Below, one piece after another: positions 40,201-42,590 of a stretch of 64,000 nt of DNA. The notes below the pieces were generated by a model. That model was not told where the DNA came from and did not search any database. It saw only the letters and a program-made list of their open reading frames with translations. The translations under genes and the position numbers were made by a program. Origin of the DNA: Eledone cirrhosa (taxonomy: Eukaryota); the NCBI GenBank assembly GCA_964016885.1, contig OZ024743.1:218364001-218428000 (forward strand), read 5' to 3'. The number at the start of each line of letters is the position of its first letter. Position 1 is the first letter of the stretch.

Positions 40201-41184
40201 GAAAGGCCCTGAGAAAGACCCACTTAAAAATAAAGGTGGTAGAAAAGCCAGGAACCACCATAAAATCCCTGATCAGCAAAACCTACCCTTTTAAGAAAAC
40301 CCACTGTACCAATAGGAAATGTATCATATGTAAGGTGAACCCCCGAATAAACTGTAAAACTAGAAACGTAGTCTATAGCATAAGATGTACAGAGGGTACT
40401 TGCAGAAACACGACAACAACATACATAGGTGAGACAGCTCGTAGCATAGGTGAAAGGATAGACCAACACTGGGGGGAACTAAAAGGACGAAAAAACGGGT
40501 CAGTACTATACGAACATGCTAGACAACATAGAAATTAGAATAATATCTAAACATAGGAATGACCCAGCAGATAGGCAAATCAGAGAGGCCAGTGAAATAG
40601 AAATTAGAAGACCAAAGCTAAACAGAAAGAATGAGTGGAACAACAACAACACCCAAACAAACAACACTGACCTAAGAGAAGTATAAATAAATAAGTAAAT
40701 TAAATAAAATAAAATAAGATAAATAAATACATACACAAGCACATAAACACACACTAGTCACCCAGCAGACACAACACTATACACACTAGTCACACATCAC
40801 ACATAACACTATACACACACGCAAACGCATGTGCAAACAAGACAAAATAAAATAAGATAAACAAACAAGCAAATAAATAAATAAATATATAGACAGACTG
40901 AACAAAAAAAAAAATGGCGTAGACATACAACACAACAGGAGGAACAATGAATATAACACCACTGACGATGTTGCAGATGTGCAACGAAAGATTTATGTAA
41001 ACTATATATATATGTGTTTGTCTATATTGTATCTGTATTATTTTTGACCGCCGGTCAGTCAATGGCAACATTGAGGACCGAGTAAGTTAGATCGCAGATA
41101 TATATATATAAAAGACAGCGAGAAGCGAAAACCAACCAAACAGTGAGTGTGTTCTGTTATTAATTCTGGCAATATTACGCAAAT
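37208..41184 (+). mobile_element. Penelope-like element (RT + C-terminal GIY-YIG), 5' end abutting (TA)n
   Basis: ORF motifs listed in the next feature; inverted 3' copy upstream; degenerate hammerhead-like core CTGACGA-tgttgca/tgcaac-GAAA at 40955-41000. Confidence 0.93.
37209..40538 (+). CDS. PLE polyprotein: N-terminal FLxxC region, Asn-rich insert, RT, Cys linker, GIY-YIG (C-terminus frameshifted)
   Basis: Frame is open from the TA border (GDIKTT..RFLKHC). Motifs [34 protein letters not shown], CxxxxCxxC, VVYSIRC..YIGETAR. The missing R..REA..I..PKLNRKNEW is in another frame after about 40525. Confidence 0.88.
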
Positions 41185-42590
41185 CGTTTCCGCTGAACCT
41201 GTGCGTACAACGACTCACGTTCTATGCAAATTGGTCTACCCACTACTAATTTTCATAGAAAAAGCATATAACGATATGTGCTTTTACAATTCTCCAGAGA
41301 AGCCGGAAGATGGGTAAATATTGCTGATGAGATGTAATAACATCGAAACTAGTCCAATATTCCTGTCTGGCCCTCTGGAGAATAGAGGAAATGTGTTTCC
41401 TTGAAAACCCGTATGACTCTAAAACCCGGTCCGTCTGTGTGGTTACATACAGACTAGCTGACACTCACTGTAAAGTGTCTAGTGAAAAGCTGAGTACATG
41501 TACATATGTATACATGTGTGTATTTATATGCATACTAATACTTCCGTATACATATGTAGATGTACACTTTGACTTAATTGTTTAAGCGTCAGTCATACAA
41601 AAGTGAGTTAGAAGCGAAACGAAATTTAATTTCGTTTCGTTATTTGTTTTTATCGTTTCCGCTGAACCGGTGCGTACAACGACTCACGTTCTATGCAAAT
41701 TGGTCTACCCACTACTAATTTTCATAGAAAAAGCATATAACGATATGTGCTTTTACAATTCTCCAGAGAAGCCGGAAGATGGGTAAATATTGCTGATGAG
41801 ATGTAATAACATCGAAACTAGTCCAATATTCCTGTCTGGCCCTCTGGAGAATAGAGGAAATGTGTTTCCTTGAAAACCCGTATGACTCTAAAACCCGGTC
41901 CGTCTGTGTGGTTACATACAGACTAGCTGACACTCACTGTAAAGTGTCTAGTGAAAAGCTGAGTACATGTACATATGTATACATGTGTGTGTATTTATAT
42001 GCATACTAATACTTCCGTATACATATGTAGATGTACACTTTGACTTAATTGTTTAAGCGTCAGTCATACAAAAGTGAGTTAGAAGCGAAACGAAATTTAA
42101 TTTCGTTTCGTTATTTGTTTTTATCGTTTCCGCTGAACCGGTGCGTACGACTCACGTTCTATGCAAATTGGTCTACCCACTACTAATTTTCATAGAAAAA
42201 GCATATAACGATATGTGCTTTTACAATTCTCCAGAGAAGCTGGAAGATGGGTAAATATTGCTGATGAGATGTAATAACATCGAAACTAGTCCAATATTCC
42301 TGTCTGGCCCTCTGGAGAATAGAGGAAATGTGTTTCCTTGAAAACCCGTATGACTCTAAAAGCCGGTCCGTCTGTGTGGTTACATACAGACTAGCTGACA
42401 CTCACTGTAAAGTGTCTAGTGAAAAGCTGAGTACATGTACATATGTATACATGTGTGTATTTATATGCATACTAATACTTCCGTATACATACGTAGATGT
42501 ACACTTTGACTTAATTGTTTAAGCATCAGTCATACAAAAGTGAGTTAAAAGCGAAACGAAATTTAATTTCGTTTCGTTATTTGTTTTTAT
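41185..42590 (+). mobile_element. Retrozyme-like family 2: three complete tandem units of about 469 bp
   Basis: Unit starts at 41185, 41654 and 42125; ends ...TTTTTAT into (TA)n; one hammerhead per unit. Confidence 0.92.
41317..41361 (+). ncRNA. Minimal type I hammerhead ribozyme (family 2); copies at 41786-41830 and 42254-42298
   Basis: AAUAUUG-CUGAUGA-GAUGU-aaua-ACAUC-GAAAC-UA-GUC^CAAUAUU; stem I extendable by attctccagag/ctctggagaat. Confidence 0.92.

Follow-up and report, generated by a model that had tools for sequence, protein, structure and literature searches.

A direct join between a retrozyme array and a Penelope-like element in Eledone cirrhosa, and the insertion structure of both kinds of element

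The locus: a PLE1 copy joined to a retrozyme array

The window analyzed here is a stretch of 64,000 nucleotides of the Eledone cirrhosa assembly (contig OZ024743.1, positions 218,364,001 to 218,428,000), in which a copy of a Penelope-like element (PLE), PLE1, runs directly into a retrozyme array. The left target of the PLE1 insertion is a (TA)n tract identified by repeat finding (35201..37206), and at its edge is an 11-nt inverted piece of the PLE1 tail (37204..37214, - strand) that ends at site B, the second primed end of PLE1 itself. The PLE1 copy (37213..41184, + strand) is slightly 5'-truncated, has RT and C-terminal GIY-YIG endonuclease regions, and ends 24 nt before site A. The frame list gives it an ORF of 1108 aa (37212..40538, +), with a 23-nt deletion near 40520 that puts the endonuclease end out of frame. 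A motif search placed a minimal hammerhead core in its 3' UTR/pLTR (40962..40989, +), for which only stem II forms in folding.

The 3' part of PLE1 ends ...GCAAAT at 41184, matching an inverted copy up to that base, and the retrozyme array lies directly 3' of it on the same + strand without a TA spacer, the two overlapping by an AT microhomology (41183..41184, +). The stop, the same-strand join and the overlap were all described in an earlier note on this DNA, and each is confirmed in the assembled sequence. The note also placed the stop 24 nt short of the PLE1 end. This is true relative to the inverted copy (26241..27250, - strand), a 5'-truncated copy ending at site A that is 24 nt longer before its TA tract; however, PLE1 copies also end naturally at another site, 58 nt further, so the shortfall is measured to one of two ends. 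With up to two mismatches allowed, the 24-nt tail was found nowhere else in the window besides 26251-26264, and no TSD was found 3' of the array, where the longest suffix of the PLE side is 4 nt. The earlier note had taken a tail or TSD 3' of 42590 as the sign of a simple later insertion; neither was found.

The 23-nt endonuclease deletion is common to both PLE1 copies in the window and rare elsewhere, with 4 occurrences genome-wide. We considered whether the two copies were arms of one insertion and rejected this, as the 5' ends of the two are separate and both flanked by TA. Despite the common deletion they differ at a segregating 9-nt indel, and gene conversion between these nearby inverted copies is a possible source of the deletion that they have in common.

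The array (41183..42590, +; tandem repeat analysis) belongs to the young retrozyme subfamily and has 98% matches. It holds three units, as the earlier note stated (3.0 x 469 nt). Each unit has a type I hammerhead core. The core of unit 1 (41324..41348, +), with predicted cleavage after 41354, was identified by motif and folding (z -4.6), and those of unit 2 (41793..41817, +) and unit 3 (42261..42285, +) by motif search; Rfam gave no hammerhead match at the gathering score. The unit has a GC content of 0.37, and the longest ATG ORF in the array is 64 aa. Two variants are common to all three units and occur in 0 of about 50 other copies. Based on its dispersed, short, low-GC, non-coding tandem units, the lack of an LTR and the predicted hammerhead, we classify the array as a non-LTR retrozyme, and the family is a new one of a known kind. 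The retrozyme "tail" extends from site A' (unit positions 397-402) to site B' (unit position 469), at 42516..42588 (+) in the last unit, and contains a 13-bp hairpin. Beyond it is the right target, a (TA)n tract primed at B' (42588..43063).

The unit boundary at the junction is site B'. The earlier note's "exact unit boundary" therefore holds in the sense that the join is at B'; this boundary is one of two predicted RT start sites, not the ribozyme cleavage site (unit position 172).

Other features of the window include a second retrozyme family (23200-24900), homologous to the first (0/200 shuffles), which is likewise arranged head-to-head and has two end sites about 60 nt apart. Just past the right TA tract is a 280-bp inverted repeat of 94% identity (43061-43341), and related sequence occurs at other loci. 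Hammerhead-bearing remnants at 22660-23160, 25690-26130, 45190-46620 and 51880-54500 probably represent other PLE families, and frames at 5336-6130 and 16523-16885 resemble host gene exons amid the repeats.

Insertion structure of PLE1, PLE-X and the retrozyme family

Genome-wide, exact copies of the PLE1 tail motif number 13,703, and there are at least 128 near-identical RT regions, many with full frames. A single ORF encodes the RT together with a C-terminal GIY-YIG endonuclease with CCHH motifs, as judged against known motifs and the available text of PMC8557442, and a C-x4-C-x2-C linker precedes the endonuclease (residue 997 of the frame at L106); a Pfam search of the protein gave no match, and 16 homologues were found. 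PLE1 also shows a hammerhead in the pLTR, tandem and inverted copies, and a tail at one end. From these sequence features we assign PLE1 to the EN+ Penelope-like elements, the linker feature being as in the Neptune or Nematis clade, and it too is a new family of a known kind. Its copies have two end sites, A and B, 58 nt apart, and site B falls at an ATG with which the next tandem unit begins. All 17 insertions in which both outer ends were readable have one arm ending at A and the other at B; these were read by eye, and many other insertions gave no clear reading.

A sister family, PLE-X, has 23,845 copies of its tail motif, about 60% identity to PLE1 in RT and endonuclease, a tail homologous to that of PLE1 and likewise a (TA)n target, in which it inserts, like PLE1, as head-to-head arms with two fixed outer ends. 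Tandem PLE-X copies of 4.15 kb occur at L271-L273 (G000:C1:2082250-2091509), and the copy at L272 has many A>G-like differences over the hammerhead region.

The retrozyme family has 2,265 copies ending at B' genome-wide, with A' and B' about 70 nt apart. We sampled contig 1, taking the first 100 B' ends in its listing; 99 of these were tallied by hand, of which 8 ran off the stretch; L102 is absent from the hand tally (n = 91) but is in the automated neighbor tally (n = 92), and the apparent duplicates L132 and L133 were both counted. An inverted arm ending at A' beside TA was found in 72 of the 91 resolved arrays. The others were TA-flanked otherwise (13), joined directly to other DNA (5) or had a mirror flank (1), and B' was paired with B' in none of the 91. 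Among 158 partly overlapping loci, both arms are of one subfamily haplotype in all arrays but one. PLE1, PLE-X and the retrozyme all occur in (TA)n as head-to-head arms, the outer ends of which fall at two fixed sites.

A tail at one end together with inverted arms is recognized as a hallmark of PLEs (PMC8557442, available text). For a PLE studied in vitro, the "tail" corresponds to the segment bounded by two internal sites at which RT starts, and the available text of that study describes the inverted-arm, two-site pattern as unique to PLEs (PMC11167929). Since two fixed ends are found in 72/91 retrozyme arrays and also in 17/17 PLE1 insertions, we are confident that PLEs mobilize the retrozyme family, with no one PLE family named, and the structure supports such mobilization for retrozymes as a class; movement in trans by a PLE protein is likely. 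The earlier note's proposal of PLE mobilization is thereby supported through the family-wide insertion structure, and not through the junction. Predicted exact RT starts (unit positions 397-402 and 469), together with two young candidate enzymes, make the partnership open to direct assay.

Some individual loci depart from the common structure. L068, like L008, has B' at both ends. The retrozyme unit of L066 (G000:C28:60889453-60892470) differs from that of its twin L068 by 59 A>G changes and by no substitution of another type; the A>G changes continue through about 2.3 kb of TA-rich flank, with T>C at the outer ends, and favor A or T on the 5' side and G on the 3' side. L066 looks like an ADAR-hyperedited transcript that was written back with its flanking microsatellite, an assembly artifact also being possible. 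At L134 (3419-3630) and L019, the retrozyme 5' end carries a mirror image of the DNA that lies on the other side of the TA tract; this suggests that the second end was synthesized from a DNA template. L134 had been a candidate for a second chimera until its 5' end proved to be such a copy of flanking DNA.

Origin of the junction

The earlier note took the junction as identifying PLE1 as the mobilizer, to be checked by an enrichment of PLE-retrozyme junctions genome-wide. No enrichment was found. A genome-wide pattern search for units starting after a non-T base, which detects the young subfamily only (27/100 sampled), gave 8 matches, comprising 3 point variants and 5 true joins, and the sole PLE join among the latter is the one described here. 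In the sample, 0 of the 92 resolved arrays were fused to PLE1 (upper 95% bound 3.2%), while in 5 of the 92 a PLE1 A-end lies upstream through TA only, as near as 14-18 nt (L253 and L166). PLE1 was the commonest 5' neighbor in the sample (5, vs. 1 for PLE-X), in a tally whose four SINE entries came from PLE sequence within the query; as a 3' neighbor within 185 nt, PLE-X was present in 4/100 and PLE1 in 0/100. Genome-wide, the A-ends at most 30 nt from a retrozyme end are 4 of PLE1 vs. 9 of PLE-X, as abundance predicts (p = 0.78), although the PLE1 vs. PLE-X call for such close neighbors hangs on one base of match. TA-less 5' joins were present in 5 of 91 arrays and lead to unlike repeats such as RTE (L157). 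L018, outside the sample, has an array in a sense join with a CR1/L2-like RT region, and further direct joins lead to repeats of other, unidentified kinds.

Sequence comparison likewise gave no tie to PLE1. For the retrozyme vs. the PLE1 pLTR/tail, 35/200 and 115/300 shuffles reached the observed score, compared with 0/300 in the PLE1 vs. PLE-X control, and we do not regard the retrozyme as a PLE1-specific derivative by sequence. A motif of the PLE1 tail that by eye appeared to be present in the retrozyme tail was not above shuffles, and a 10-nt retrozyme match to PLE-X near site B was not significant (238/300 shuffles). Given that the junction is unique, no sampled array is fused, the neighbors follow abundance and sequence similarity is not above shuffles, PLE1 is not identified by the junction, and we set aside its reading as a PLE1-diagnostic template-switch chimera since there are no recurrent, family-specific fusions.

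We consider it probable that the junction arose when two separate insertions struck one (TA)n tract and the DNA separating them was then lost. A PLE RT/endonuclease would cut both strands and prime both DNA ends on one RNA at two internal sites. PLE1 would have inserted here with B as its left end and A as its right end; as its left end carries the 11-nt inverted B piece, the right end should lie at A, 24 nt beyond the junction. The three-unit array would have been copied in one run from B', off a circular or multimeric RNA, into TA beside the PLE1 end. The last 24 nt of PLE1, the TA spacer and any inverted arm would have disappeared during insertion or afterwards, with AT as the point of repair. 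As a variant of these two steps, PLE1 may have come second, priming at a rare base against the array edge. L253 and L166, with their PLE1 A-ends near an array through TA, correspond to the state before loss, and at L225 a retrozyme lies inside a PLE1 copy that resumes after it. Joins of this kind would not be rare: from the frequencies of adjacency (5/92) and of direct joining (about 5/92), 6.7 junctions are expected among 2,265 arrays without any template switch, an estimate that is the product of two counts of 5 and includes any breakpoint.

Several findings stand against two insertions and a loss. The array does not appear younger than the PLE1 copy, with private substitutions at 6/1406 in the retrozyme vs. 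3/2201 in PLE1 (p = 0.10). The join is exactly at B', neither a tail remnant nor a TSD is present, and PLE1 is the commonest 5' neighbor in the sample. In addition, two other arrays have two templates and carry a B-type end at each side. One, L008 (291-2907), has one old-subfamily unit and the rest young, with the switch across a unit boundary and B' at both ends. In the other, L262 (2280-3120), a retrozyme arm ending at B' meets, with no TA in between, a PLE-X tail that ends at B, making it a candidate chimera with PLE-X.

These same arrays would fit an alternative close to that of the earlier note, in which a single event used two RNAs. A PLE1 complex would have primed the right end at B', gone three rounds on the retrozyme RNA and, at the unit boundary, changed its template for PLE1 RNA, landing 24 nt before A, with the left end primed at PLE1 B. 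This account is consistent with the youth of both elements (at least 128 near-identical RT copies; units 99% identical), and the private variants common to the three units imply one template. It also fits the exact boundary join, for which there is mild enrichment in the young subfamily, in which 4 independent joins are at the B' base vs. 0.9-1.3 expected (P 0.014-0.04). However, 2 of the other 3 boundary joins have local microhomology of 6-7 nt, and in the unbiased sample only 2 of 75 5' ends are within 10 nt of the unit boundary, vs. 3.2 expected, with no cluster. The landing point is at neither of the more natural places, which are A itself and the cleavage site that precedes A by 213 nt, and natural priming at the landing base is rare (18 PLE1 copies end there vs. 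13,703 tails). Where 30 of 70 variant PLE1 copies at this base were examined, 26 were small variants and 4 were breaks, two of the latter (L076 and L095) being SINE insertions with a 14-nt duplication. Deletion between neighbors would also yield L008 and L262, direct joins can arise from copying of flanking DNA, as at L134 and L019, and the lack of any sampled fusion weighs against the account as well. A single template switch retains some probability because neither tail nor TSD was found downstream, yet two insertions and a loss are the more likely account, and we regard it as doubtful that the junction is the fossil of a PLE1 RT that circled the retrozyme three times and then jumped to its own RNA. 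Were it so, the junction, L008 and L262 would be two-RNA insertions and direct genomic proof of trans-mobilization by PLE1 and its sister; otherwise the junction alone contributes little.

A third account would leave PLEs out, with the retrozyme moved by a non-PLE LINE (RTE or CR1/L2) or amplified at the DNA level and the two-site ends coincidental. RTE copies are likewise young and TA-associated, the retrozyme resembles neither PLE tail, and L018 shows the sense join with a CR1/L2-like RT region. We nevertheless consider this account very improbable in view of the two-site inverted arms of 72/91 arrays, a pattern that the available text of PMC11167929 reserves to PLEs, and of the single haplotype on both arms in all arrays but one; the copy with A>G hypermutation is a further pointer to an RNA step. 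Least credible of all is an assembly error between repeats, as, although two high-copy repeats meet here among long TA tracts, the contig is chromosome-scale, the private variants are common to the units and the join is clean, with microhomology as at other loci. Two insertions and a loss thus remain our preferred reading, and the junction is real in the assembled sequence and probably an ordinary nested join of a retrozyme and a PLE.

Comparison with known systems

PLEs have been named as strong candidate mobilizers of metazoan retrozymes (Cervera and de la Pena, 2020; PMC7229834), and the available text of a 2024 review makes the same proposal (PMC11722881). A 2026 preprint (10.64898/2026.07.22.740005) concludes from co-occurrence and pLTR phylogeny that retrozymes hijack PLE machinery. 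Arguments on what moves animal retrozymes have so far drawn on hammerheads in common, on co-occurrence and on similarity of the pLTRs. In its available text the preprint, which reaches the same conclusion as we do, deals mostly with vertebrates and relies on pLTR similarity, whereas we found no pLTR similarity and rely on an insertion signature instead. The metazoan non-LTR retrozymes described in the main text of PMC7229834 have, as here, tandem non-coding low-GC units and a type I hammerhead; their units are 150-450 nt, vs. 469 nt here. The head-to-head arrays with two fixed ends differ from that description, as inverted arrangements, tails, junctions and microsatellites are absent from its main text, and tails, inverted arms and junctions likewise go unmentioned in the available text of the preprint. 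Within the literature accessible without subscription, preprint supplements aside, we did not find the two-site signature reported for retrozymes, and retrozymes are unmentioned in the available text of a recent octopus repeat annotation (PMC13282606).

The closest biochemical parallel is the PAc Poseidon element (Frangieh et al., 2024; PMC11167929). As described in the available text, both strands are cut and extended in vitro, and RT starts at two internal RNA sites between which the genomic "tail" lies, as would hold for the elements described here. PAc belongs to the Poseidon clade and was used with a cis template only, and its tail is 30-40 bp, vs. 58 in PLE1 and about 70 in the retrozyme.

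In their coding region and insertions, the Neptune/Nematis-type EN+ PLEs (Craig et al., 2021; PMC8557442, available text) resemble PLE1, both having the C-terminal GIY-YIG with CCHH and the CX2-5CxxC linker, together with tandem and inverted insertions, a one-end tail and a microsatellite bias. In non-autonomous Chlamys such as MRC1, according to the same text, the 3' end resembles that of the partner. The retrozyme described here has no such detectable likeness, and yet it bears the inverted arms and two-site tail that are linked to PLE RT.
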